Source: a virus (Duplodnaviria > Caudoviricetes). From it: DNA of 64,000 nt. The stretch's first letter is position 1. The number at the start of each line of letters is the position of its first letter. The DNA is taken from IMG/VR virus record IMGVR_UViG_3300008262_000001, one strand, 5' to 3'. Below the pieces are notes generated by a model. That model had not been told where the DNA came from, did no database searches, and worked only from the letters and a program-made list of their open reading frames with translations. Below are positions 5,052-39,344 of the stretch, in pieces. The position numbers and the translations under genes were made by a program.

Positions 5052-5866
5052 GGATTAGCACCGGTAGATCCTGTAATATCCCTTCTAATGTCGTAAACTC
5101 CAAGCCCTTCTATAATTGTGCTATTATCTTCAGGTGCCTTTCCTAATTCAACATTTAGTTTGATTCCACCTTGCATCAAATTACCTCTGAATCTCTCAGT
5201 AGTAAGGTCTAACTGTGGAAGATATGTTTCTAGATCCATCGAGAAAGAAAGTGTTATAGCTTCACCTCTTTGTGATCCGTATCCCATTTGGAAATTATTA
5301 GGTTGCTTATCTGGAGGAGAATCCTGTAATGAAACTTGAACTGGTATTCTAAACCCCTTGTAATTGAAGTAGTAAACGAATCTCTTGTACAATATTTCAA
5401 GAACACTTTGCTGTATTTTAAAAGCATCTAAAGTTGTATCTGCTTTGATTTTAGCATTAACTTGTATTGCTAAAGGAATAGGATTCATGTAGGATGAATA
5501 AGTCACCATTTCACTTCCTGATTCTTTTGGTACTTCTTTTACGTACGAGCCACGGACAAATTTTGTAGTCGATGCAGATGTATCTAATCTGATTGTACCA
5601 AGCTCTAATATTCCTCTTGGAACGACATCATAATTTCCCTCAGCAAAAGCAGGATTTCCATCGCAGTCTTCATAAGAAAGATAAAAATCTTGTAGAAATG
5701 GTTCGTCGCCTACCATAGAATAGAAAAATGGAATGAAGATAGTTCTTTTAACTTGATCTGATCCAGTTTGAGTATAGGTTATAACCTCATTCATCTTACT
5801 TAGAAGCCCTAAAATAACACCTCTAAAGAAAACATCGTCTGTGTTGTATTTTTCTAAAAAATCCAT
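5048..5866 (-). CDS. Tail terminator / sheath stabiliser, T4 gp15-like
   Basis: Size 272 aa; IPFFYSM, VPRGIL, PIPLAIQV...FKIQQSVLEILY pattern; structural gene neighbourhood. Confidence 0.55.
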   Translation of the reverse strand: MDFLEKYNTDDVFFRGVILGLLSKMNEVITYTQTGSDQVKRTIFIPFFYSMVGDEPFLQDFYLSYEDCDGNPAFAEGNYDVVPRGILELGTIRLDTSASTTKFVRGSYVKEVPKESGSEMVTYSSYMNPIPLAIQVNAKIKADTTLDAFKIQQSVLEILYKRFVYYFNYKGFRIPVQVSLQDSPPDKQPNNFQMGYGSQRGEAITLSFSMDLETYLPQLDLTTERFRGNLMQGGIKLNVELGKAPEDNSTIIEGLGVYDIRRDITGSTGANP

Positions 5867-5867
5867 A

Positions 5868-6281
5868 TTAGTTAATTACTGAGGTATTATTAGTTATTAT
5901 TGGAACACTGCCATATTGGTAAGGATCCTTTTCTAAATCAATAACCCCGATTTTTGATTGGAAGTAAATCGGAATTTCTCTTAAATTAATTTGTAATGGC
6001 TGCTTATTTTGATTGATATAATCGGGATGATCAAATACACCTGTTGCATATTCTACATCAGTCATTTGATTACATTGGATAAGTTGAACTGGGGAAAAAT
6101 ACTTTCTCAATGAATTTATTCCTTTTTTTGCAGCAATTGAAACCTTAAACCTATAAACGAAATATTCTTTTTGTGGAATATCATCAACTAAAGAATCGGG
6201 TTTTACCACAAGAAAGTAATAAAACCTTGGTTCTAAATTTCTAATTGTGTTAGTACCCGCAGGATAAATGATATTGGCCAT
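5868..6281 (-). CDS. Hypothetical late protein
   Basis: 137-aa ORF with GATATATA at 6287-6294. Confidence 0.65.
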   Translation of the reverse strand: MANIIYPAGTNTIRNLEPRFYYFLVVKPDSLVDDIPQKEYFVYRFKVSIAAKKGINSLRKYFSPVQLIQCNQMTDVEYATGVFDHPDYINQNKQPLQINLREIPIYFQSKIGVIDLEKDPYQYGSVPIITNNTSVIN

Positions 6282-6304: not shown

Positions 6305-7972
6305 TTAGCCTATCTTTTCAAAAACAAGATCTGAGAAATTGTTCTTTTTTGAAATCTCTATCTTGTAATCGAAAATTTCTGTAGGCATTGGTGCGTGATT
6401 AATTACGAAGATGTTCATGTGTAAATCGTCGCAAAGTTTTCTCAAAGTAGTTAGAATCGTATGTACCCCATCAGGATCGACAGAACTGAAAATCTCATCA
6501 AGAAATAGAATGTTAACAGAAGAAAATCTTATTTTCATTAACTTGATTATAGCAACTAAGACCGCAAAATCAACTTTTTTCATTTCTCCTGTAGAAAGAG
6601 TTTGACAAGATATCTCCTCACCTAAGTGGAATATTTGAGCATTGAACTCCTCATTGAAAACCACCTTGTATGGTAAATGTAAAGAGAGAAGAGTGGAAAG
6701 AATTTCATTGTTAAGTGATGGTAAAATAGACTTAATTGCCAGTTGCTTTACACCTTTTTCACTTAAGATTTCATCAAGGGTTTTAATCCAATTTTGTCTC
6801 TCTTCCCAAGTAGACTTTTCCTTATTGAAAGTGCCAAGCTCTTCTTGTGCAGTGTTCAACAACTTCTTAATAGAATTTACCTGATCATTATTTTTTGCAG
6901 TTTTAAGATCCCTTAATTTTTCTTTCAAAGATTTGATAGCTAATTCTATTTTCCCTCCCTTCTTAAAAAGATCATTTTTGGTATCTTGTAAATCCGATTG
7001 CAATTTCTTAGCATCATTGTAATTTTGCTTCAAAGCTTGCAAACCATCAGACAAATCCTGTCTTTGTGATGAAAGAAGGTCAAAATGAGATTTATGAAAA
7101 TCACTTGAAAGATCTGATAAGCAGGTTGGACACTTGTCGTTGTTGTACAAGTTCATTTTTGAATCTAATTCTTTGATTTTACTCATAGAATCAGTCAAAG
7201 TCTCGTATGCTTTGGAAACAGTTCTACTTATGTCATTTTCTTGTGTTTTGAAAGACTTAAGCTTTTCTGTGTGAATTTTAAGCAGATCTGTGTAATCATC
7301 AAGCTGTTCCTGAGTTTTGTCAATTTCACCTCCTGCATTTTCTACTAATCTTTTCTGAAGATCTTCAAGTTCTTTTTGAGAGTTGAAGATGGATTTTCCT
7401 GTTGCTTGGATTTCACCAGAAAGTCTATCAATAGATGACTTTATATTCTTTGTTTCTTCTTTCAAAATGTCACGCATTTCATTTAAAATATAGAAACCAA
7501 AAATCTTATCTATTATGAGCTTTTTATCTGCGCTGCTCATCTTTAAAAAGCTTTTGAAGTCGTTAATAGACAGGGATATTGTATTATTGAAAACGTAATA
7601 TGGTATTTTCAATATGTCATCAGAAAGAAAGTCCTGTACATTTTTCTGACCTGCCCTGTCATAAACTTCACCTTGAATCGATAATTGAAATAGTGATGGA
7701 TCAAGACCTCTTTCAACCTCGTAGAATTTACCATCCTCCTCGAATGATATTTTCATCCAGGCATTGCCGTTGGATCTATTAGGAATGTCTTTTAGTTTTT
7801 TTCCTTCGAGTTTTCCATACAGACCAAAAGTTATGACATCAGAAATTGTCGATTTTCCCACACCATTTTCTCCAAAAACTTGTATCAGACCAGTTTTTTC
7901 TGGAAATTCAAGTTTTTGAATTTTATTCCCGTAAGAAGCAACGTTTTTCCACTCAATCTTCTTGATCTTCAT
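6305..7972 (-). CDS. gp46: Recombination endonuclease ATPase subunit (gp46/SbcC/Rad50-like)
   Basis: Walker A GENGVGKST, coiled coil with CPTC zinc hook, signature LSTGE, Walker B ILFLDE. Confidence 0.93.
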   Translation of the reverse strand: MKIKKIEWKNVASYGNKIQKLEFPEKTGLIQVFGENGVGKSTISDVITFGLYGKLEGKKLKDIPNRSNGNAWMKISFEEDGKFYEVERGLDPSLFQLSIQGEVYDRAGQKNVQDFLSDDILKIPYYVFNNTISLSINDFKSFLKMSSADKKLIIDKIFGFYILNEMRDILKEETKNIKSSIDRLSGEIQATGKSIFNSQKELEDLQKRLVENAGGEIDKTQEQLDDYTDLLKIHTEKLKSFKTQENDISRTVSKAYETLTDSMSKIKELDSKMNLYNNDKCPTCLSDLSSDFHKSHFDLLSSQRQDLSDGLQALKQNYNDAKKLQSDLQDTKNDLFKKGGKIELAIKSLKEKLRDLKTAKNNDQVNSIKKLLNTAQEELGTFNKEKSTWEERQNWIKTLDEILSEKGVKQLAIKSILPSLNNEILSTLLSLHLPYKVVFNEEFNAQIFHLGEEISCQTLSTGEMKKVDFAVLVAIIKLMKIRFSSVNILFLDEIFSSVDPDGVHTILTTLRKLCDDLHMNIFVINHAPMPTEIFDYKIEISKKNNFSDLVFEKIG

Positions 7973-9544: not shown

Positions 9545-10842
9545 TCATTCATTATTTGGGAATTTGGGTCTTCGGAAATTCTCATAAAAGAATAGTCTAC
9601 CAAAAATTTCTTATAAGAGTTTTTATATCCCTCGTCCCTATTGGCTAATAGCTTCAATTTATATTCTCCGTTACTGTACATTAAAGGATCTTGAATTATA
9701 CCAAACATACCATCCACAGTAGCAACAAGACCAGAAGATTCAGAAGCTGAGTTCATGCTTAAATCTGTAGCATCGAATTCGCTTTGCTTGGTTTGTGTTG
9801 CCGTAACAATAGCCCAATGGTTTCTTTGTGCAGCTGCCCTTAAATCTTCAGCAATCTGCTTGATCTTCATGTAAGTATTTTCGGAGTTTGGATTTCTCCA
9901 GTTTTTCATAATATTGATGTAGTCAATAATTACGATCTTGAACTTAATACCTTGTATTTGTTCAACTTTGTTCAACCAATTTTCAACATCAATTGCTGAA
10001 GCTTGTGATGTTGGAAACTCCTTAACTACAAGTTCACCTGGGCTTTTCAGATTTTCAAAACCAAGATTTGTTATCTTCTTTTTGATCAAGGAATCGTTCT
10101 CTGCACTTTCCTTGTATTCTGACATTTTAATACCTAGGAGGTTAGCTCCTAATCTTTTCATGTACTTCCTGTCATTAAGCTCTAGAGTGATAATTGCAAC
10201 ATTATTAGATGCTCTAATTGCTTGTGTTGCTATGTTTCCAAGCCATAAAGTTTTACCAACTTTTGGTTGTCCTAACAAGACATAAAGGCCTTTTGCAGAA
10301 AATCCACCGCCTAAACAAAAATCTATATAGTCATAACCACTTGAGAAAGTTAAGTTACTTGGCTGTTTATGTGATTCTGGATCTTTAAAGTTAAGACCCA
10401 TATCAAATGAAAAGTCGACTTTGTTTCTGTCGACTACTATTGATTTGTAAGTGTTAATTACATCTTTAATATTATCAGGGCTTACTTCAGTGCTCCTAAT
10501 ATAATTAATTGAGTCAACTGCACTCTTTTCCAGAGTTTTCCATTCTATCCAAGATTCAACATTTTGCTGGAGCCACTCTTTGTCGTAATCTTCAAGGTTT
10601 ATGCTCCACATAGAATCAAGCAAAGAATCCTGGAGTTTGTCATCAATTTTTAAAAGTTTTGCAGCTTCTCTGACTTGAATTTTACTTGGGATCTGTTGGT
10701 ATTTTTTCCAGAAAGATTTTACTACTTTAAATGCTTCCTGATAATCAGTATTTTTAAAAAAACTAATATCAGTAGCATCAATATAAGCTGGGTTTTGTAT
10801 TACCGATCTAAACCAAATATTTTCTAAGTGTTGATTCTGCAT
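9541..10842 (-). CDS. gp41: Replicative DnaB-like helicase (gp41)
   Basis: GQPKVGKT Walker A, ITLEL, IVIIDYINIM, TATQ, SESSGL motifs. Confidence 0.92.
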   Translation of the reverse strand: MQNQHLENIWFRSVIQNPAYIDATDISFFKNTDYQEAFKVVKSFWKKYQQIPSKIQVREAAKLLKIDDKLQDSLLDSMWSINLEDYDKEWLQQNVESWIEWKTLEKSAVDSINYIRSTEVSPDNIKDVINTYKSIVVDRNKVDFSFDMGLNFKDPESHKQPSNLTFSSGYDYIDFCLGGGFSAKGLYVLLGQPKVGKTLWLGNIATQAIRASNNVAIITLELNDRKYMKRLGANLLGIKMSEYKESAENDSLIKKKITNLGFENLKSPGELVVKEFPTSQASAIDVENWLNKVEQIQGIKFKIVIIDYINIMKNWRNPNSENTYMKIKQIAEDLRAAAQRNHWAIVTATQTKQSEFDATDLSMNSASESSGLVATVDGMFGIIQDPLMYSNGEYKLKLLANRDEGYKNSYKKFLVDYSFMRISEDPNSQIMND

Positions 10843-11138: not shown

Positions 11139-12294
11139 TTTCCTCAGAATTTGTTTCAGTTTCTTGTCCCTCTAAAAGCTCTTCAAATTCTTTCTCGTCG
11201 AAAAGATCAGGCAATTTAAAATGCGGACCTATAACCTTTTCATCAATCATTTTAAGAACCTCGTCGGTGAAAACTTCTGATGTAAAAATCTGTGTTGAAG
11301 CAACAGTCTTTCCTAAGTGTCTTACTGCCCATCTTGGAGAGGATTCATTTCCTTCGAATTTCATTTCTCCCGTTTTTTTATCAACCTCCAATTTACCTCT
11401 TTGTATGCCGCACGTTTCCCAAGAAACAAAGTCCTGGAGACCAACATATGGATTCATACCATTCATAAATGAAATGTGGAATTTCACAGCATATGGTCTA
11501 GTGAATCTTGCTTTTTTAGGTGTCGAAGTTACTATTATACCAGTTCTGGTATCTCCTTCTTTTAGCTGAGCTTTAGAAAGCATTATAACGTTGCTCATAG
11601 AGAAGATAGGACCATCACCACCTGCAGCTTCTTTAGTAGGCATAAAACCTCCAATGTTTCCAGTGGTCGTGTGGTTTGTACAAATCAATGGGATTTTCAC
11701 TCCGGTTAGATCTAAAGTAATAACTCTGAATAAGGATCTTAATTCCTTAGATCTTATACCCATATCCATCGCACTTTTACCCTTAAGTGCATCGCCAGTT
11801 TCTTTGTCTGTTGATAGCATACCTAAGGAATCCAGCACGATCATAATTTTTGGATCTGCTCCTTCTTTTCTATAACCCTTAACCTTATCAATAAGATTTG
11901 CAACGAATACTTTGAATTCTGCAATTGTTTTAATTGGTTGATAACGAACAGTATTAGCATCAATACCAAACTTTTTAGCACTGCTTTTGTCGATTGCTCC
12001 TTCTGTATCACAGTAAATAACGTTGTAGCCCTTTTTCTGTGCCTCTCTTACAATGTTCATACAAAGGAAGGATTTACCTGTCTGTGGATCGCCTGCTATT
12101 CCCATTGATCGATTGTTGGCTATTCCTCCGAATAAACTCCCTGAAAGCTGTGCATTAAGAAGATAGTTACCAGTTGGTATCCATTCCCCAACCTCTGAGA
12201 AATCGTTGGTCTCTAGAATTGAACCAGTTTCAAATCCTTCTATTTTAGAAAGCTGCTTATCAAGTTCAGCGAACGAAAATTCTTTTTTTGCCAT
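11119..12294 (-). CDS. uvsX: RecA-like recombinase UvsX
   Basis: GDPQTGKS, YCDTEGA, IVLDSLGML, GGDG motifs. Confidence 0.92.
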   Translation of the reverse strand: MAKKEFSFAELDKQLSKIEGFETGSILETNDFSEVGEWIPTGNYLLNAQLSGSLFGGIANNRSMGIAGDPQTGKSFLCMNIVREAQKKGYNVIYCDTEGAIDKSSAKKFGIDANTVRYQPIKTIAEFKVFVANLIDKVKGYRKEGADPKIMIVLDSLGMLSTDKETGDALKGKSAMDMGIRSKELRSLFRVITLDLTGVKIPLICTNHTTTGNIGGFMPTKEAAGGDGPIFSMSNVIMLSKAQLKEGDTRTGIIVTSTPKKARFTRPYAVKFHISFMNGMNPYVGLQDFVSWETCGIQRGKLEVDKKTGEMKFEGNESSPRWAVRHLGKTVASTQIFTSEVFTDEVLKMIDEKVIGPHFKLPDLFDEKEFEELLEGQETETNSEENAEGEN

Positions 12295-17611: not shown

Positions 17612-18676
17612 TTATTTGTGAAATCTATCGAAAGAATTTTTTGTGATCTGGTTGAATCTCACCTTTCCACAAAATTCACCTAAAGTCAAACAATCTGTAT
17701 AACTCATGGCAGATTTAAGATAATCAGAGAAATTTTCTACCCAGCCTGATAAAGTATATTCTACTGGTTGGATTTTGCTAATACCCTCTGAAGTTTTTAA
17801 CTCACTTCGGCCTAAACTTTTTTGGACCTCTTTAGTTGACATACCTCTGAACTTCTTAAAATATTTTCTGCCCATTAAAAACTGCTCTTTGACTTCAGCA
17901 GAAAATTGATCTACTTTTTCCCCAGGATCTGTCCAAAAGTCATATTTTCTATTTTCTTCAAATGTCTCACCAGCACTTTCAAGTGTTTTGTTCAGCATAC
18001 TTCCAAGCATTACATAGTCTGCTCCCAAAGCCAATGCTTTGATTATATCTGAGTATTTTTTAAATCCACCATCAGCAACTATTTTGGTAGAGAGATTTCT
18101 TTCTTGTTGTAGTTTGTATGTGTCATGAATCAATGAGGCCATTGGATAACCCACACCCGTTTGCACTGTGGTTAAACAACCTGCTCCATTACCTATGCCC
18201 ATTCTAACATAATCAGCACCAGACTGAGCAAGTGATAAGTAGGTCAAGGGGTTAGCACAGTTACCAACCATCAGAACCAATTGTCTATCATATATTTCTT
18301 TGGCCTGCTCTAAAAGATCTTTAACTATCCTCATGTGTCCGTTAGCTATATCAATCAAAGCATACATTTTATCCTTTGGATGGAGCTCAATTGGATTGTC
18401 TATAAAAATTCTTTTGAAATCGTCAAGTCCATAGGAAAACCAAATTTTATGATCTGTGGAAAAATCAGTTTGTAATGGATTGGCTTTTCTTGGAAGAATT
18501 GAGTAGATCTTATGATCATTAAAAATATTACAGTTGTTTTCACTAATTACCGTATCCATTGGTGCAGTAAACAAAGGAAGCATTTGTTTTTCTTCTAAAA
18601 TATCTACCTTCTTTCTCGAATTAATACTAGTATGTAATTCTGGTTCTATCAGAATGTCGTCAAAATCAAAAAGCAT
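17612..18676 (-). CDS. IMP dehydrogenase / GMP reductase family (no CBS domains)
   Basis: TAPMDTV, IDIANGH, GIGNGAGCLT, IVADGG, KALALGADYVMLGS, FRGM, GLKSAMSY-like YLKSAMSY. Confidence 0.9.
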   Translation of the reverse strand: MLFDFDDILIEPELHTSINSRKKVDILEEKQMLPLFTAPMDTVISENNCNIFNDHKIYSILPRKANPLQTDFSTDHKIWFSYGLDDFKRIFIDNPIELHPKDKMYALIDIANGHMRIVKDLLEQAKEIYDRQLVLMVGNCANPLTYLSLAQSGADYVRMGIGNGAGCLTTVQTGVGYPMASLIHDTYKLQQERNLSTKIVADGGFKKYSDIIKALALGADYVMLGSMLNKTLESAGETFEENRKYDFWTDPGEKVDQFSAEVKEQFLMGRKYFKKFRGMSTKEVQKSLGRSELKTSEGISKIQPVEYTLSGWVENFSDYLKSAMSYTDCLTLGEFCGKVRFNQITKNSFDRFHK

Positions 18677-22754: not shown

Positions 22755-23324
22755 TTATTTTAAAAACCGAAGAATTTTTTCTTTAATACCCACCTGCTTG
22801 ATTCCTTCATTTCCCCTTGGAGTATGGACAAAATTTTCTAATCCCCATTCGTGGATAAATTCCATCGAATAAGATTTGACAATCTTACCCATATTGAGAT
22901 CGTCCACTGCAACCCAATTGGTTACTTCAGGATGGCTTTCAAGCCAGGTCATAATTTCCAAGCTTCTTGTGCCCTCAGAATCCCAGTCTCTGTGCCAAGT
23001 AGCTTTAGCTGGATCAATTATGTTTCCGGTGAAAGCAATGGGTTTTTTTATAATTCCCTGCATTTCATAATACAATCCCATTTCTTCAAGATTACAGAAG
23101 TGCTGCCAATCTGAACTCACGACTATTTCAGCATCTGTTTCTAAAAGGATTTTATTTAGAACACCAATTGCTTTTTTGTTGAAATTATCAAATCTGAATT
23201 CAACTGGTACACTCCTTTCTCCACCTGGATTTGGATTAGAGTAAGCTTTAGTTTTTTTCAATCTACTTCCCCATTCTGATGACAAACAGATAACACCATC
23301 ATGGTCTAAAAACAGAATTTTCAT
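22755..23324 (-). CDS. HAD phosphatase, Swiss-Army-Knife RNA-repair-like (HAD_SAK_2 type)
   Basis: MKILFLDHDGV (DxD), IVVSSDW, WVAVDD; TATATTTG promoter at 23329-23336. Confidence 0.8.
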   Translation of the reverse strand: MKILFLDHDGVICLSSEWGSRLKKTKAYSNPNPGGERSVPVEFRFDNFNKKAIGVLNKILLETDAEIVVSSDWQHFCNLEEMGLYYEMQGIIKKPIAFTGNIIDPAKATWHRDWDSEGTRSLEIMTWLESHPEVTNWVAVDDLNMGKIVKSYSMEFIHEWGLENFVHTPRGNEGIKQVGIKEKILRFLK

Positions 23325-23382
23325 AATACAAATATAAAAAAATAGCACCGAAAGGATATATATTTTACTAAAAAAATCATCA

Positions 23383-24786
23383 ATGGAAAAAAACATTCTC
23401 AGATTTAGTAGCTACTTGGAAACACTTAGCGGAACAATCAATGAAAGCGAAACTTCAATCAAAACAATTTCACAAATAATCTCTGCTTACACTAAACTTT
23501 ATATGTTTCTCGTTTCAAAGTCTCCTAATTACAAAGATGTAGTTACTGATTTGATTGAGGTTAACGAAGAAAAAGACCCAGCTAAAAGAGGTGAGAAAAT
23601 GGCCGCTATGCTTAACAAGGTAGCTGAAACTGTTGATGCTAAGTATGCAGATGTTAAAACTGGTATTAAAGATCTTGCTAAGAAAATTGGGGATTTATTT
23701 ACTTCAGTTGCATCAAGTGAAGATGCTAAGAGTAAGAAAGAGGTAATAGACACAGCAATAGCTACACAAATATTCGGATATAGAGATATTGCTAAAAAAG
23801 AAGGAACTAACGAAAATATTCAAGGATTAGGTAAAAACCACGTTCAAATGTTTGAGCAGTTCACTTACCCTCTTCTATTCGAAAAGAAAACATTTGAAGA
23901 TGAAAGAGAGGATTTGGTTCAACAAATGAAGCCAACCTACACTGAAATGCAGCTTCAGAAAACTAATCCTAGTACAGAAACACTTAAAGCTAAAGCTGAA
24001 GAAGTGGTAAAAAGATTTGATGAAATTACCAAGCTTCTGAAAACTGAAGAAGAGTGGGAAAAAATGAAAAACAAAAAAGCTAGAAAAGAAAAGATTAAGG
24101 AACTGGGTGAAGAAATAGCTAAAACATCTGAAGAGGTTAGTAAAATACAAAAAGATGAGCTTTTCAAAATTGGTATTGAAAAGAAAACCGCTGAAGACTT
24201 ATCTAGCGTGATAACTGGAATAGCAGAACTTGAGAAAAAAGCTAAAGTCGTTGATGATGCAGTTTTAGCTAAAGCAGGAAGAGACACATTTCATTCTTCT
24301 CTAAAAGTTGGTGATACAGTTAAATACAAAAAAGATGATGGAACTGAAGCTGAGGGGGAAATCAGTAAAATAGTAGGTATAGGAGACGAGGCTAAATACA
24401 CCTTTAAAGATAAGGAAGGAAATCTTTTTGCTAAAACAGGGGATCAGATTATCTCAAAGGTCGAAAAAACAGAAGACAAAAAAGAAGAAGAGAAAAAAGA
24501 GTCTACTTTAAAATTAGAAAAAACGATCAAAGCAACTGGATCTTCACCAACAGGTGAAAATCTAGAACTAACCAAAAAGGTTTTCTCTTTGATATATGAT
24601 AAATTTACTGATAATAAAGAAATATCAGCTATGGAAGAATGGAAAAAATCCAACTTCGGCAAAACTAGTAAATTCTTCATAGGACCAAGCAGAACAGCAG
24701 TCATTAAAGCTATCAAGAAAGAGTATGGTTTAGAAGCAAAAAATGGAGATATCACCCCAGAATTGGTTCAAAAACTATCAGCATAA
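23383..24786 (+). CDS. CTS-like late coiled-coil protein with KOW-like motif
   Basis: MEKNILRFSSYLE; LKVGDTVKYK; GATATATA 23355-23362. Confidence 0.7.
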   Translation: MEKNILRFSSYLETLSGTINESETSIKTISQIISAYTKLYMFLVSKSPNYKDVVTDLIEVNEEKDPAKRGEKMAAMLNKVAETVDAKYADVKTGIKDLAKKIGDLFTSVASSEDAKSKKEVIDTAIATQIFGYRDIAKKEGTNENIQGLGKNHVQMFEQFTYPLLFEKKTFEDEREDLVQQMKPTYTEMQLQKTNPSTETLKAKAEEVVKRFDEITKLLKTEEEWEKMKNKKARKEKIKELGEEIAKTSEEVSKIQKDELFKIGIEKKTAEDLSSVITGIAELEKKAKVVDDAVLAKAGRDTFHSSLKVGDTVKYKKDDGTEAEGEISKIVGIGDEAKYTFKDKEGNLFAKTGDQIISKVEKTEDKKEEEKKESTLKLEKTIKATGSSPTGENLELTKKVFSLIYDKFTDNKEISAMEEWKKSNFGKTSKFFIGPSRTAVIKAIKKEYGLEAKNGDITPELVQKLSA

Positions 24787-24803
24787 CAAAAAATACAATA
24801 TTT

Positions 24804-24831
24804 AAAAGGGATAAATTCTATCCCTTTTTTT
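24804..24831 (+). terminator. Intrinsic terminator
   Basis: AAAAGGGATA-AATTC-TATCCCTTTTTTT. Confidence 0.8.
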
Positions 24832-24887
24832 GTGACCTGTGATTACATATTCGTCACAATCAGATATATAAAACATCTAATTAATCA

Positions 24888-25172
24888 ATGAAACACATAA
24901 GAAAATTTGGAAATTTTGGAACCAAGATTAACGAGGGGTTCTGGAATAGTATTTTCGGAAATCCTACTATTGATGATGCTGCACAAGACTCAATGAAGGG
25001 CCAAGGATGGAGTCACAGAGGAAAAGAAGAGGATGAACAAAATTATATTATGTTCCAAGGACAGAAATTCTATCCTGACCAAATAGAATATGATGATGCT
25101 TACTCAACTAAGCCTATTCCTAGAATTGAGAACGGAAAGCTAATTGTAGCTAATCCTTCTTGGAATATGTAA
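24888..25172 (+). CDS. CTS-like small late protein
   Basis: MKHIRKFGNFGTKINEG; GATATATA 24863-24870. Confidence 0.7.
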   Translation: MKHIRKFGNFGTKINEGFWNSIFGNPTIDDAAQDSMKGQGWSHRGKEEDEQNYIMFQGQKFYPDQIEYDDAYSTKPIPRIENGKLIVANPSWNM

Positions 25173-25178
25173 AGGAAG

Positions 25179-25262
25179 TACCCGGGACGGGAATCGAACC
25201 CGTACAACCAAATGGTTACAGCATTTTAAGTGCTGCGTGACTACCAATTCCACCACCCGGGC
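25179..25262 (-). tRNA. trnL: tRNA-Leu(TAA)
   Basis: GCCCGGG/CCCGGGT acceptor, CAGCA-CTTAAAA-TGCTG anticodon arm, long variable arm, GGTTCGA T-loop; no encoded CCA. Confidence 0.95.
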
Positions 25263-25265
25263 AAA

Positions 25266-25341
25266 TGGTCGAGACAATGAGACTTGAACTCATAGCCTTG
25301 ATCGTATAAGGATCCTGCTCTTACCATTGAGCTATGTCTCG
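25266..25341 (-). tRNA. trnI: tRNA-Ile(TAT), encoded CCA
   Basis: CGAGACA/TGTCTCG acceptor, GCTC/GAGC D-stem, anticodon loop CTTATAC, ATGAG-TTCAAGT-CTCAT T-arm, A73-CCA. Confidence 0.88.
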
Positions 25342-25353
25342 ATTTTAAAAATG

Positions 25354-25428
25354 TGTTCCCTGTAGGGATCGAACCTACGACCTACGGTTTATGAGACCGT
25401 TGCTACTAACCAACTGAGCTAAGGGAAC
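25354..25428 (-). tRNA. tRNA with CAT anticodon (elongator Met or lysidine Ile2)
   Basis: GTTCCCT/AGGGAAC acceptor (G1-C72 paired, so not initiator), ACGGT-CTCATAA-ACCGT, GTAGG-TTCGATC-CCTAC. Confidence 0.9.
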
Positions 25429-25429
25429 T

Positions 25430-26080
25430 TTATGATAAATATTTTGTGGGAATTTCATATATTCCTCTTCTTATCTGTTCAATCTCCTCTTTTTTGATTA
25501 TTATAAGATTATTTACGCATTTCCACTTTTCTCTATCACGATCTCTTTCATAGCCTTTTACCTCGATATAAGCATCAATTTTTGGCAAATAAAAATCAGG
25601 AAAATAGTAATGAATATTCCCTATCCAAAAATAGTCGAATGGTTTTGTAATTTTATTTGTCCATTGTATTTCATGAATGTCGAGCCATTTTGCTACATCT
25701 AGCTCCCATTTTCCTTTAAGCTTAAATCCCTTATATTCAAAAATTTTAGTTCTACCTGAAACGTTATTAGCTGAATAAGAGTGTGGGTTTTCAAGAACTG
25801 TTTTTTTCATTTTTTCTGAATGCTTTTTTTTCCTTTCAAGTGTCCATTTTTCACCCTTTTTAGAGTCTGATATTTTTTTTCTGGTTTCTTGGGCTAATAA
25901 AGGAAATGAGAGCCCCATTTCTTTAGATTTTATATATTGATTGGAAGCATTAGATTTTTTTCCAAACATTGGGTTATTTTCTCCAGCTTTACTCTTTCTT
26001 TCTGGATTCATTTTGCAATAAGACTCGTGATTTTTTAATCCAAATATATTTTTATCTTCTTTACAATATTTACAATTCAT
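25430..26080 (-). CDS. Free-standing homing-endonuclease-like protein (Zn finger, NUMOD3-like, PD-(D/E)xK) within the tRNA cluster
   Basis: CKYC...H...C; GENNPMFGKK; ETRKKIS; FPDFYLP...IEVKG. Confidence 0.75.
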   Translation of the reverse strand: MNCKYCKEDKNIFGLKNHESYCKMNPERKSKAGENNPMFGKKSNASNQYIKSKEMGLSFPLLAQETRKKISDSKKGEKWTLERKKKHSEKMKKTVLENPHSYSANNVSGRTKIFEYKGFKLKGKWELDVAKWLDIHEIQWTNKITKPFDYFWIGNIHYYFPDFYLPKIDAYIEVKGYERDRDREKWKCVNNLIIIKKEEIEQIRRGIYEIPTKYLS

Positions 26081-26100
26081 ACTAAACTATATATAAAAAG

Positions 26101-26172
26101 TACCCCTGGCGGGAATCGAACCCACATTTTGAGATTAGAAGTCACATGTTCTATCCGTTGAACTACGGGGGC
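26101..26172 (-). tRNA. trnR: tRNA-Arg(TCT)
   Basis: GCCCCCG/CAGGGGT acceptor, GTTC/GAAC D-stem, loop CTTCTAA, GTGGG-TTCGATT-CCCGC. Confidence 0.93.
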
Positions 26173-26202
26173 TTAAATTATTTTACCACTACTTCAAAGA
26201 AC

Positions 26203-26236
26203 AAAAAAACCGGAACTTTTAAAGGTCCCGGTTTTT
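26203..26236 (-). terminator. Attenuator terminator upstream of the tRNA operon
   Basis: AAAAACCGGGAC-CTTTAAAA-GTTCCGGTTTTTTT. Confidence 0.8.
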
Positions 26237-26272
26237 GATATATTTAAGATGGAATATCAAAATTAGGACCTT

Positions 26273-26332
26273 TTAAAATCGTCTTATGAACGACCTTAAT
26301 ATTAGCCTTAATGAAATTGATTTTCCTATCAT
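26273..26332 (-). CDS. Putative leader peptide MIGKSISLRLILRSFIRRF (not in ORF track)
   Basis: ATG ATA GGA AAA TCA ATT TCA TTA AGG CTA ATA TTA AGG TCG TTC ATA AGA CGA TTT TAA; ATG lies 6 nt after TATAAA. Confidence 0.6.
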   Translation of the reverse strand: MIGKSISLRLILRSFIRRF

Positions 26333-26338
26333 TTGTGT

Positions 26339-26366
26339 TTTATACCTTTGTGAATGCTTTTGTTTC
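26339..26366 (-). promoter_or_regulatory. GAAAC-N17-TATAAA promoter overlapped by a 9-bp inverted repeat; TATCTTTG host-type element at 26368-26375
   Basis: GAAAC 26366-26362, TATAAA 26344-26339; CTTTGTGAA/TTCACAAAG at 26346-26372. Confidence 0.6.
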
Positions 26367-26380
26367 ACAAAGATAACAAA

Positions 26381-26677
26381 TTAAAGTACTGAAAAAAATA
26401 TTTTATGAAGTTCTTCGATGAAAATTTTAGTTGGTTTGCCTAAATAAGATGCAACATCTTCGGCTATTTCTTCATCTTCTGTATCACAGACAATATAAAA
26501 ATTAGCATCTTCCCTGATTGAGCTTCTGTTTAGGGCTAAATTGTCTAAATCTGATGCTGGATCATCCCAGAGATCTTCGTAGTCTGGTCTCTCAATTTCA
26601 TCTTCTTCAAAGTATGAGAAGATATCTTTCTCCTCATAGCTGAATTCATCGAATTCACAATAAATCTTGATTGCCAT
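26381..26677 (-). CDS. Hypothetical acidic protein
   Basis: 98-aa Asp/Glu-rich ORF. Confidence 0.65.
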   Translation of the reverse strand: MAIKIYCEFDEFSYEEKDIFSYFEEDEIERPDYEDLWDDPASDLDNLALNRSSIREDANFYIVCDTEDEEIAEDVASYLGKPTKIFIEELHKIFFSVL

Positions 26678-26689
26678 AAAAATGCTTGA

Positions 26690-27034
26690 TTAAACTTCCT
26701 CGATTAGAACTTTCTTAAGATCGTATCCTGTTGGGATATCTGAAGATTTTTCGTAGTAACCAATAATTGAATACTGTTTTCCGTCTGAACTAGAATCTGG
26801 AACCATCTCCATTTTGCTAACCATTGATCCTCCAGTGTATTCTGGTTCTAATGCACCACCTATTTCGATTGTTGTAGGCATGCCTTCAGAATTTTCAAAA
26901 TTTACAAAGTAGTTTCCCTCGGTATAAGCATCACCTTGGGTGATGTCGGTAGATTCAGCTTCAAAGTGAACTGGAGTAGTTTCAACTGGCATGGTTTCAA
27001 AACCATAATCTTCGTATATTTTTAAATGCCTCAT
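26690..27034 (-). CDS. CTS-like small late protein
   Basis: MRHLKIYEDY; GATATATA 27045-27052. Confidence 0.7.
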   Translation of the reverse strand: MRHLKIYEDYGFETMPVETTPVHFEAESTDITQGDAYTEGNYFVNFENSEGMPTTIEIGGALEPEYTGGSMVSKMEMVPDSSSDGKQYSIIGYYEKSSDIPTGYDLKKVLIEEV

Positions 27035-27055
27035 CTTTTTTAATTATATATCTAT

Positions 27056-27202
27056 TTATCTTCCCTGGCCAACGTAAACTTTTTTGTAATTCTTAGATTT
27101 TTTGTTTTTACTAGATTTACACTTAGAATGTATCCCTTTATTACATTTCTTTGCTTTCTTTCTGAATGTACTAGTGGATTCACTTTTCTTAGGTTTAGCC
27201 AT
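27056..27202 (-). CDS. Small highly basic protein (48 aa, not in ORF track)
   Basis: MAKPKKSESTSTFRKKAKKCNKGIHSKCKSSKNKKSKNYKKVYVGQGR. Confidence 0.7.
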   Translation of the reverse strand: MAKPKKSESTSTFRKKAKKCNKGIHSKCKSSKNKKSKNYKKVYVGQGR

Positions 27203-27251
27203 GTTTTGATAAGATTATTTAGTTTTGTCTACATATGTATCTTAGAGAAAC

Positions 27252-27276
27252 AAAAAATCCCGCCTGAGCGGGATTT
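27252..27276 (-). terminator. Intrinsic terminator after the TROVE gene
   Basis: AAATCCCGC-TCAG-GCGGGATTTTTTG. Confidence 0.8.
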
Positions 27277-27296
27277 GGTTGATATGGCACAAAAAC

Positions 27297-28919
27297 TCAG
27301 GATTCTATAGAATCCCAAATGTCAATAATTGCTTTTGCAAAGACAGGTTCTTTTCCTGTCCAACCTGATAAAATTGCACCTCTATAAAGATTTTCTGGAA
27401 GAACTGAATTATCGTATCCAGCAACCTGAACAGAGAAGACATTTACTTTAGGATTCACCTTCTTTCTGTAAACTTCAACCATCTTTAAAACATCTACGTG
27501 TGTGGATGAACTAGTTGTTCCATAAGGAGATCTGCCAACAGTGTTTGAAAATCCGAAAAGACCACCGTGTCCCGCTTGCATATCAGAGTAAATGAAGACC
27601 GTATCGTAGTGAATCTTTTCTGTGATGGCTTGATCCCAAAATACCCAAATACCATTCTCAGTAGATCCCCCTTGCATTTTTCCTCTTTGTGATGTCTCTT
27701 CCAGTTGTGTGAGTAGACCATTTCTTTTAGAGATCTCTTCTAATGAAAGTTTATCACCAAAAACACCAACAAGACCTTGGTCTGCTTGCATTGCAGTAAT
27801 TAAAGAAGAAAGGTTTGCAATTTCTGCTACGGTAACTGATCCATATTCACTCTGACAAGATCCCCAAGCAGAACCTGAATTGTCAGACAGACAAGCAACT
27901 TTACCCTTAAGCTTAGGCATATTTGCTACTGCTATATCTAAGCATTCTTCTAAAGCATCAAGTATTAGTCTTTTGTTGTTTACTTCTTCTGAAGACTTAA
28001 CTGCTTTATAAGCTGACCAATATCTAAATGGGAATTGCTTTCCTTTCAAAACTCCAGATTTTAATCCATCTAGAATTTTAACGGTGGTATCAAGATCTGA
28101 TATCTCTTTGAAAATTCCTCTTAGGTTTTTCAGAAGAGCCATATGAGGAACTGTAATTTGCTTCAAAATCTCTTGCCAGTTTTTACCTGCAGACTTAAGA
28201 CTTTCCCAGGTCATTTCAGTTTCTAAAATATTGAGCTTACCAGTTGTCATAAGCTCACTGATGTCATCATTAGAAGCATGAGATATTCTTACTAGGTCAA
28301 TGAGTTTTTTGCCCTTGTACTTGTTGAGCTGATATCTGCTATACTCTTCTAATCTTTCCGCCCATGTACGTTTAATTAAGGATGGAAGCTTTGATTTTGT
28401 TCCATTCTTAAACATGTAATAGTCAAACTGGTTAGTTAAGTCATCAGGTCTTTCTGCAATTTTCTTCCCGATGTTTTTCATATAACCAGGATTCATCTCA
28501 TTAAAAGATTTCCTGCTCTCGTGAGAAAGTGCCCTAACAAATATAACCGAAGGGTTTAATCTCATAAGATATTCAGTCCTGAGTTCTAGGGCTAAGTCCA
28601 ATGTAGCTTGGAAATCAAAAGAAAGCGAATTGTCGATTGCCTGCTCAAAAACATCCACTGCAGATCTTTTATCTTTGAATAGATCCGGGAAAATTGAATG
28701 GTCTATAATCGTAGAGATATTTTTGATTGTAGCATTAGAATTGATCCCATCCCGATAATATTGAGGTTCTCCAAAAATCGAAGAAGCTGCTACAATTTTC
28801 AATGTTTGTAAAGGAGAAATCTTGTAAGATGTTCCTGACATGAAATTCTGAACTTTGTCTCCAGAGTTTTTTCTAGACAAAGCTGTTTCTTTAATACCAA
28901 ATTCGCTTAATTTAGACAT
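27297..28919 (-). CDS. rsr: Ro60-like TROVE + VWA RNA-binding protein
   Basis: 540 aa; LALELRTEYLMRLNP, VPHMALLKNLR, QFPFRYWSAY; VWA MIDAS ACLSDNSGS; FIYSDMQ. Confidence 0.9.
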   Translation of the reverse strand: MSKLSEFGIKETALSRKNSGDKVQNFMSGTSYKISPLQTLKIVAASSIFGEPQYYRDGINSNATIKNISTIIDHSIFPDLFKDKRSAVDVFEQAIDNSLSFDFQATLDLALELRTEYLMRLNPSVIFVRALSHESRKSFNEMNPGYMKNIGKKIAERPDDLTNQFDYYMFKNGTKSKLPSLIKRTWAERLEEYSRYQLNKYKGKKLIDLVRISHASNDDISELMTTGKLNILETEMTWESLKSAGKNWQEILKQITVPHMALLKNLRGIFKEISDLDTTVKILDGLKSGVLKGKQFPFRYWSAYKAVKSSEEVNNKRLILDALEECLDIAVANMPKLKGKVACLSDNSGSAWGSCQSEYGSVTVAEIANLSSLITAMQADQGLVGVFGDKLSLEEISKRNGLLTQLEETSQRGKMQGGSTENGIWVFWDQAITEKIHYDTVFIYSDMQAGHGGLFGFSNTVGRSPYGTTSSSTHVDVLKMVEVYRKKVNPKVNVFSVQVAGYDNSVLPENLYRGAILSGWTGKEPVFAKAIIDIWDSIES

Positions 28920-29351: not shown

Positions 29352-29380
29352 TTGATACCGCTAATGTAATACAAAGTTTC
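29352..29380 (-). promoter_or_regulatory. GAAAC-N18-TATCAA promoter candidate for the Y-RNA-like array
   Basis: GAAAC 29380-29376, TATCAA 29357-29352; boxA-like GTTCTTTCA follows at 29343-29335. Confidence 0.45.
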
Positions 29381-29693
29381 AATTTAGATTCTCCTGGAGG
29401 AAAATTTTTATTTGATCTTCTGATTTTACTCCTGAAAATCTAGCAACTTCTTTACCCTCACTGGTGATCACACATGTTGGAATATTTTTAATTCCAAACT
29501 TTTTAGTTGTTAGTTGAGCCTCTCCAACATCTGCCTTTACGAAATTGAAATCGTTTTGAAATTCTTCTGACACTTTCTCCAATGTTGGTTTTATAATTTT
29601 GCAAGGTCCACACCAATCTGCAGAAAATAGGATAAAAGATTTCTGTGAAGAATCAATTACTTTTTCTAGTTCTTGGTCTTTAAGACTATTCAT
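29379..29693 (-). CDS. trxA: Thioredoxin
   Basis: FSADWCGPCK, FGIKNIPT; start re-assigned to MNSLKD. Confidence 0.92.
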   Translation of the reverse strand: MNSLKDQELEKVIDSSQKSFILFSADWCGPCKIIKPTLEKVSEEFQNDFNFVKADVGEAQLTTKKFGIKNIPTCVITSEGKEVARFSGVKSEDQIKIFLQENLN

Positions 29694-29748
29694 TTTGTTT
29701 GAGTTATTTAGTAGTCTATATAACCTCAAAGACTTTGAACTTCAATCT

Positions 29749-36133: not shown

Positions 36134-39344
<3,211 letters not shown>

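Follow-up and report, generated by a model that had tools for sequence, protein, structure and literature searches.

The DNA examined here (the window) is a 64,000-nucleotide stretch of a Caudoviricetes virus, a freshwater giant phage (IMG/VR record IMGVR_UViG_3300008262_000001), whose source contig measures 174,942 base pairs (bp), has 35% G+C and an estimated completeness of 63%, and carries a short array of tRNA genes. The array begins with tRNA-Arg(UCU) (26172-26100), is interrupted by a homing-endonuclease-like open reading frame (ORF) of 216 codons (NUMOD3/phrog_15137; 26080-25430), and continues with tRNA-CAU (25428-25353), tRNA-Ile(UAU) (25341-25266) and tRNA-Leu(UAA) (25262-25178). 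These four are the only tRNA genes in the contig, from which tRNA-Ser and tRNA-Pro are absent. Upstream lies a 98-codon ORF (26677-26381), preceded in turn by an ORF at 27034-26690, and the 208-nucleotide (nt) spacer between its end at 26381 and the start of tRNA-Arg holds the whole of an element that is likely to be a ribosome-mediated (leader-peptide) transcription attenuator controlling the tRNA operon, as an earlier reading of the window (the original prediction) had proposed. Element and array lie on the minus strand throughout, as do all other window features named below.

The leader ORF occupies 26332-26273, with its ATG at 26332, 19 codons and a TAA stop at 26275-26273, and encodes the peptide MIGKSISLRLILRSFIRRF. 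Eight of its 18 post-ATG codons (ATA three times, TTA twice, AGG twice and AGA once) are read by the downstream tRNAs, and those proposed to be regulatory are codons 8-13, TTA AGG CTA ATA TTA AGG (26311-26294). Strand 2 of the putative switch, UUUUAAAAGGUCC (26278-26266), overlaps the stop codon and pairs with strand 3, GGACCUUUAAAA (26228-26217), which is made of the 5' arm and loop of the terminator. The resulting antiterminator encloses an inner hairpin (26262-26233) in which UUUUGAUAU (26262-26254) is paired with AUAUCAAAA (26241-26233). The intrinsic terminator (26236-26203) consists of AAAAACCGGGAC, the loop CUUUAAAA and GUUCCGGUUUUU, giving a 12-bp stem with arms at 26236-26205 and a U7 tract at 26209-26203; it was called by a terminator scan and is present in the minimum free energy (MFE) fold. 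ORF, strand 2, inner stem, strand 3 and terminator were all found where the original prediction had placed them. The MFE fold also predicts a strand 1, or anti-antiterminator (26304-26329), pairing with 26270-26249 in ribosome-free RNA, and a local hairpin, UUAAGGUCGUU/GACGAUUUUAA (26273-26299), is predicted to span the 3' end of the ORF and the stop codon; an equivalent CGUCG..GACG hairpin is kept in relatives. With an MFE of -38.1 kcal/mol (z = -4.05), the structure is one that none of 200 shuffled sequences matched in stability.

All the sequence-level hallmarks of a leader-peptide attenuator are present, namely an ORF, matched codons, a terminator and an antiterminator, with strand 1 and the placement of the stop codon given by structure prediction. 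The claimed trp/his/pheST-type geometry is borne out by this anatomy, and folding with and without the ribosome-masked segment switches between terminator and antiterminator. The codon content, which had been thought remarkable, does exceed chance: ATA, TTA, AGA and AGG together account for 8.25% of codons in the long ORFs of the genome, which gives a binomial P of 4.4e-5 for at least eight of 18, and among the 572 ORFs of the 175-kb genome that open with ATG and run to 15-25 codons, the leader ranks first in its share of cognate codons. The runners-up in this ranking reach 0.43, 0.43 and 0.39, so that the leader ORF is no isolated outlier. Two caveats also apply: the UCU anticodon reads AGG by U:G wobble only, and the endonuclease gene separates tRNA-Arg from the other three tRNAs. 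The codon evidence from the window alone is suggestive, not compelling, and the decisive support for an attenuator, at the level of sequence, is comparative. A scan of the window's own genome for further leaders (short ORFs of MxxxxN[IL] type followed by a terminator) found nothing convincing.

Relatives were fetched as 49 viral contigs by means of the Ro60/TROVE protein encoded near the array and one further contig by means of the 98-amino-acid neighbour; individual loci are referred to by L numbers. A homologue of the spacer element was found in 13 of the related contigs (class A), in the shared order TAnnTTTG-TGAAACAAAA, TATATAA, ATG and short ORF, AAAGGUCC, hairpin, AAACCGGGACCUUUAAAAGUCCCGG followed by U7, GTTCTTTGAAAT and tRNAs. 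The ATG and reading frame of the leader are kept in 12 of the 13 homologues although codons 2-6 vary freely, and the stop codon lies in or beside strand 2 in every one, at both of the positions set by a 1-nt indel. Helix covariation was assessed in a 13-sequence alignment (A1) against 500 shuffles. The outer helix of the antiterminator is 90.2% paired with three compensatory pairs, a result equalled by two of the 500 shuffles, and sliding it by one column lowers pairing to 61-64%; the terminator is 99.2% paired, again with three compensatory pairs, and was matched by a single shuffle. One of the compensatory pairs of the antiterminator, an A-U to U-A exchange in L006, couples strand 2 with a base of the terminator loop, a covariation that makes no sense unless strands 2 and 3 pair. 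The sequence of the inner hairpin changes from one subgroup to the next (UUAGUUU/AAACUAA, GUUAAU/AUUAAC, UAAGAU/AUCUUA), yet the hairpin always forms, in the same place. Short ORF, terminator and antiterminator are thus retained in related phages, with compensatory changes in both helices, as the attenuator proposal had anticipated. A pattern scan of IMG/VR for class A leaders returned at least 119 loci; among the matches listed, four were real class A leaders, all of them in contigs already in the set. A search of GenBank phages gave matches to the tRNAs and the endonuclease only, and no close relative was found there.

The leaders of these relatives vary in a manner that follows the tRNA genes. 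The array of the close relatives is Ser(UGA)-Arg(UCU)-Pro(UGG)-Ile(UAU)-CAU-Leu(UAA), and codons 7-19 of their leaders read ATA TTA CCT (TTA/TCA/TCC/TCT/ATA) (ATA/TCG/TCA) (TTA/TCA) AGA CCG TC(G/A/T) (ATA/TCA) AGA CGA TCN, 12 of the 13 coding for one of the five amino acids that the array's tRNAs carry. At the positions of the proposed regulatory codons 8-13, ATA, TTA, CCN, TCN or AGA codons are found. Ile is written exclusively as ATA and Leu exclusively as TTA, and the variable codons interchange only ATA, TTA and TCN; the resulting Leu, Ser and Ile swaps are radical for a peptide, and their confinement to the codon set served by the array would be expected if selection acted on codon identity and not on the peptide. 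At least two Pro codons occur in the leader of each of the 13 homologues, and in the window, whose array is without tRNA-Ser and tRNA-Pro, both are gone (CCT to AGG and CCG to TCG). The fetched locus of the more distant L005 shows no tRNA-Ile(UAU), and ATA occurs once in its leader, where TCG, AGA and TTA are more numerous. Class A leaders contain zero internal ATG codons and, apart from L005, at least three ATA codons each. The tRNA-CAU of the window is not an initiator, because it has a G1-C72 pair and is without the GGG/CCC anticodon stem; it also has C4-G69 and C5-G68, which we take to be TilS determinants of tRNA-Ile2, and as a second reader of ATA it would fit the ATA-rich, ATG-free class A leaders.

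Leaders of other classes extend the match between codons and anticodons to many arrays. A rough scan covered 35 loci with 150 array starts; 37 of the starts had a terminator at most 110 nt upstream, and 35 of those 37 also had a short ORF. Before a Gln(UUG)-Phe(GAA)-Thr(UGU)-Val(UAC) array, the leader peptide is MKNLTNILFVMTLTVLFQFLQTELGFLCLS, with the core ..FVMTLTVLFQFLQT..; two Glu(UUC)-Arg(UCU) leaders read ..THREERERY.. and ..FFEIRERRES.. (cores REERER and EIRERRE); a Pro-Pro-Ser-Ala-Ala array follows ..ICASSIASAKAVAPRIVPCSS.. (core ..CASSIASAKAVAPRIVPCSS..); and an Ala-Phe-Lys-Met-Cys-Gly-Trp-His array follows MMNTMVKKCWHMFGFAGKTSGGAI (core KKCWHMFGFAGK). The leader of a Tyr-Leu(UAG)-Leu(UAA)-Ser(UGA)-Ser(GCU) array, MYMFLSLYSSLYLSLLYKSQGVGMV (MYMFLSLYSSLYLSLLY..; core YSSLYLSLLY), uses Leu and Ser codons from both codon boxes, in a phage with just 24% identity in Ro60. 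Leader codons therefore co-vary with downstream anticodons, as had been expected, in the family of the window leader and in at least six other pairs unrelated to it in sequence. When one representative per class was taken and arrays were permuted over leaders, the true pairing was the best of 5040 permutations (1/5040), at the amino-acid level and at the strict-wobble codon level alike; with two flagged ORFs of unmatched appearance added against cherry-picking, 3 of 362,880 permutations reached the observed score.

The structural logic recurs in these classes too. All 11 representatives taken from the other classes are predicted to have, at the ORF's 3' end, a stretch complementary to the 5' arm of the terminator, with a hairpin enclosed between the two; for 8 of the 11, the duplex of strand 2 with the terminator arm has an energy within the bottom 5% of the shuffled values. 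Complementarity of the same kind is seen in L037 and L050 (CGGAGG/CCUCCG) and in L054 (UCAGGGG/CCCCUGA). A second, paralogous leader and terminator precede a Glu-Asp-Met sub-array, absent from the window's contig, in L008 (about 11430-11625), L012 (about 11165-11370), L006 (about 11520-11745), L042 (about 10190-10420) and L005 (about 6330-6540); in this group, a change in strand 2 is accompanied by changes in both terminator arms (GUCAGAGG with CCUCUGA/UCAGAGG as against CCGCCGAG with CCUCGGU/ACCGAGG). Leaders of different classes (L007, L005, L035, L012, L008) share the N-terminal motif M-K-N/H-L/F-x-N-I, the remaining peptide being retuned for each array, which suggests, from the sequences, either an origin by duplication or early codons constrained for initiation.

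The start of transcription is the point at which the original prediction had to be revised. It had taken GAAAC-N17-TATAAA for the promoter; that sequence is present, within a conserved 5' leader block (TGTGAAACAAAA ... (G)TATAAAA; 26338-26369) that is near-invariant in 13 relatives, and a sigma-70 scan did not call it. As a promoter it is probably wrong, given the silent scan and the fact that TAnnTTTG is the sole upstream motif common to all leader classes. The box TATCTTTG at 26375-26368, of the Bacteroidota sigma-A -7 type (TAHHTTTG), appears from the sequence to be the better candidate, with a predicted start near 26363, and the conserved block may be a 5' untranslated region or an alternative promoter. 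The consensus of the Bacteroidota sigma-A -7 element is TAHHTTTG, spanning -12 to -5 (PMC6847099, PMC9723704), and in distant leader classes TTGACA stands 16-17 nt before TAnnTTTG. The predicted start would imply an A-rich 5' untranslated region of 31 nt without a Shine-Dalgarno sequence, the absence of which is usual in Bacteroidota (PMC6847099); promoter type and untranslated region together suggest a Bacteroidota host.

The effect of a ribosome on the leader was modelled by constraint folding, with a stalled ribosome represented as an unpaired footprint of 30 nt. In the window, L007, L012 and L036, ribosome-free RNA adopts the 1:2 structure together with the terminator, and a ribosome at the stop codon likewise gives the terminator; once codon 9 or codon 11 occupies the A site, the terminator is gone and the antiterminator forms instead. 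The claim that stalling at codons 8-13 frees strand 2 is to this extent upheld by the model. In the window, with the RNA considered from strand 2 on, little energy separates the two states (-19.6 versus -14.8 kcal/mol).

The attenuator would work as follows. Transcription probably starts about 30 nt before the ATG from the Bacteroidota-type promoter, and the RNA would carry the 19-codon ORF. If the ORF is untranslated, or if the ribosome is quick to reach the stop inside strand 2, strand 2 would be sequestered or masked, the terminator would form and the tRNA genes would not be transcribed. Slow decoding would stall the ribosome at about codons 8-12, covering strand 1 and leaving strand 2 free to pair with the 5' arm and loop of the terminator, and polymerase would read into tRNA-Arg, the endonuclease gene and the CAU, Ile and Leu tRNAs. 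The cause of slow decoding could be a scarce, uncharged or damaged tRNA, and the sensor would not distinguish a scarce tRNA from an uncharged or cleaved one. New tRNAs would speed decoding and shut the switch, so that the supply of just these tRNAs would be under negative feedback. We infer here the use of the promoter, the translation of the ORF, its coupling to transcription, and both the sign and the size of the response. A look for RNA sequencing runs containing this DNA found none.

Missing and uncharged tRNAs look alike to a stalled ribosome, and the same switch, with identical anatomy, could instead respond to stress in translation or amino-acid supply at large, whether in how fully Ile, Leu and Arg tRNAs are charged or as a slowing of translation overall, without any feedback on tRNA supply, much as classical attenuators read charging. 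This seems improbable: the regulated products are the tRNAs themselves, amino-acid starvation is not relieved by more tRNA, and leaders tailored to isoacceptors (ATA for tRNA-Ile(UAU), TTA for tRNA-Leu(UAA), AGA for tRNA-Arg(UCU)) would be needless for sensing amino acids. Since the sign of the response is deduced from folding alone, the logic might also be reversed, efficient translation of the leader promoting read-through by blocking Rho or opening structure; or the peptide might itself be the functional product, as the N-terminal MKNLxNI common to several paralogous classes could hint, unless that motif serves initiation. Both versions are very unlikely. In all class A homologues the stop codon falls within strand 2 or adjoins it, so that a ribosome terminating there would hide strand 2 and tip the balance towards the terminator, and the body of the peptide changes radically within class A (interchange of L, S and I) and is wholly different between classes. 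Least probable of all is that the hairpin and U7 merely end the upstream genes (27034-26690 and 26677-26381), with the ORF arising by chance in a structured spacer or small RNA and the tRNAs driven from elsewhere: the terminator does stand about 150 nt after a protein-coding gene, its A-tract/U-tract form could act in both directions, and one homologue is missing the ATG, yet this account leaves unexplained the unrelated short ORFs that spell the amino acids of their own tRNA blocks, the covariation of strand 2 with the terminator loop and the variable codons within one class, and no second promoter-like -7 box is present between the terminator and tRNA-Arg.

Several findings weigh against a leader-peptide attenuator as set out above. 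Three Ser codons (TCA twice and TCG) stay in the window leader with no tRNA-Ser in the contig, whose completeness is estimated at 63%, and a ribosome stalling as late as the final cognate pair, ATA AGA (codons 16-17), would cover strand 2 instead of releasing it. In L005, L006, L037, L050 and L054, the terminator is the equilibrium winner even with a stalled ribosome; here the claim about stalling does not hold at equilibrium, and, on this modelling, the switch would have to be kinetic, as in classical attenuators. The compensatory changes come mostly from two lineages, L005 and L006, and represent few independent events. The leaders of the Glu-Asp-Met sub-arrays are not significantly enriched in cognate codons (7/24, P = 0.3), a conserved GAG GAT pair alone standing out. 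The promoter is a deduction, the strict form TTG-N19-TAnnTTTG being absent at the leader and occurring once in the window against 2.25 expected. Finally, in L011, which shares its contig with L166, the leader ATG (near 7037) is replaced by ATA with the remaining element intact; this homologue may be a decaying copy or use a non-canonical start.

The array in L011 is a shortened one, with Ser-like, Arg, Ile and Glu genes. Its tRNA-Ser(UGA)-like gene (about 7205-7295), between the terminator and tRNA-Arg, was not called by ARAGORN; it starts with GGAGGATTAAACC, as does the called tRNA-Ser of L017 (about 5984), and has the T-arm TTCGAGTCC. A decayed tRNA-Ser remnant was considered for the window and rejected, the window leader aligning colinearly with those of its relatives and the Ser gene being simply absent. 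Given the Ro60/TROVE gene nearby, a Y-RNA-like Ro-binding helix was likewise considered for the GGUCC...GGACC stem; the Rfam Y_RNA and Yrl models had no match at 24800-27400 or in the whole window, and the stem needs no such reading because the antiterminator accounts for it.

If the leader is an attenuator, each tRNA block might be a self-contained homeostat in which the leader senses decoding speed at the codons of its own products, gains and loses codons along with the tRNA genes, and so lists the tRNAs that the phage treats as limiting in its host; lost or scarce tRNAs could then be replaced as needed, be it because the host offers too few or because an anticodon-nuclease defence cuts them. 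This broader picture is put forward tentatively, as a possibility somewhat short of even chances. The RNA-repair-type genes close by (Ro60/TROVE and HAD_SAK_2) would fit such a role in on-demand tRNA replacement.

Among known systems, the nearest in architecture are the multivalent attenuators of enterobacteria, the ilvGMEDA leader (Ile/Leu/Val) and the thr leader (Thr/Ile), as distinct from the single-amino-acid leaders trpL, hisL, leuL and pheL. The multivalent leaders likewise have a short translated ORF with clustered regulatory codons for several amino acids, alternative helices 1:2, 2:3 and 3:4, an intrinsic terminator and a stop codon placed to mask strand 2. They control biosynthetic enzymes, whereas the targets here are tRNAs, so that the loop would close on decoding capacity, and the codons (ATA, TTA, AGA) are chosen at the level of the isoacceptor; the phages that carry the element probably infect Bacteroidota. 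In sequence the element is not similar to these leaders, and it scored far below threshold with the Thr, Trp and L20 leader models of Rfam. Attenuation also governs the aminoacyl-tRNA synthetase genes pheST, through the pheM leader. Leader peptides have been described upstream of hisS paralogues (PMC2965389). Like the present element, the pheST and hisS leaders attenuate genes of the translation apparatus in response to the state of tRNA; they differ in serving protein genes and one amino acid each, in contrast to several tRNA species at once in a virus. T-box riboswitches share a terminator/antiterminator switch that monitors a specific tRNA, but they bind the uncharged tRNA through a specifier codon and a T-box bulge without a ribosome, unlike the conserved multi-codon ORF found here. 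No T-box was matched in Rfam at E <= 1 (24800-27000) or at the gathering threshold (whole window), and the element is neither a T-box nor a member of another Rfam family.

Leader-peptide control of tRNA genes, those of phages included, was not described in the full-text literature searched on the topic, one genome-wide attenuator-discovery paper among it. What is new is tRNA genes as the target, codon choice at the isoacceptor level, one leader per block and the viral setting. How phages control the tRNA genes they carry is largely unknown, as is their purpose, be it codon-usage matching or counter-defence; a leader-peptide attenuator in front of them would represent a control principle undescribed for tRNA genes in any organism within that literature, one in which the speed of decoding at their own codons serves as the gauge of the tRNA pool. 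Such a leader would give a direct read-out of the tRNAs that the phage needs, would extend ribosome-mediated attenuation to viruses of probable Bacteroidota hosts, and could supply synthetic biology with compact natural sensors of codon-specific decoding speed.

The endonuclease ORF within the array is probably co-transcribed with the tRNAs and would be co-regulated with them; in the 19-nt spacer between it and tRNA-Arg, no obvious hairpin-plus-U terminator was seen. The tRNA gene cluster of phage T4 is similarly interrupted by a homing-endonuclease gene, segB, and we know of no leader-peptide attenuator for that cluster. In L017 (about 5300-5980), an ORF with a similar C-terminal segment lies between the leader terminator and tRNA-Ser, and both ORFs look like homing endonucleases riding in attenuator-controlled tRNA operons. 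Downstream of the window's terminator lies a conserved motif, GTTCTTTGAA (26193-26202). Its general form, (G)TTCTTTGA(A/C)AT, that is TCTTTGA(A/C)AT, recurs after attenuator terminators and before or between tRNA genes in relatives (L008 near 11600 and 12200; L006 near 11725). No -7 box follows the motif, which, judging from its sequence and position, may be a processing or binding site.

The tRNA region is flanked about 1 kb upstream by the gene for the Ro60/TROVE protein (phrog_850, 'RNA-binding protein'; 27297-28919), a homologue of which is kept in 49 viral contigs, often a few kb from tRNA arrays, and further out by genes for thioredoxin (29379-29729) and for a protein with the HAD_SAK_2 'Swiss Army Knife RNA repair' domain (22755-23396). 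A very lysine-rich ORF of 48 codons (MAKPKKSESTSTFRKKAKKCNKG...; 27056-27202), without a Pfam match, lies between the terminator of the Ro60 gene and the next gene. Elsewhere in the window are genes for a collagen-triple-helix-repeat protein, probably a fibre (36822-39329), and for a protein of the IMPDH/GMP-reductase family (17612-18676). Sequencing runs containing DNA of the contig are labelled mostly as fungus, lake-water and freshwater metagenomes.

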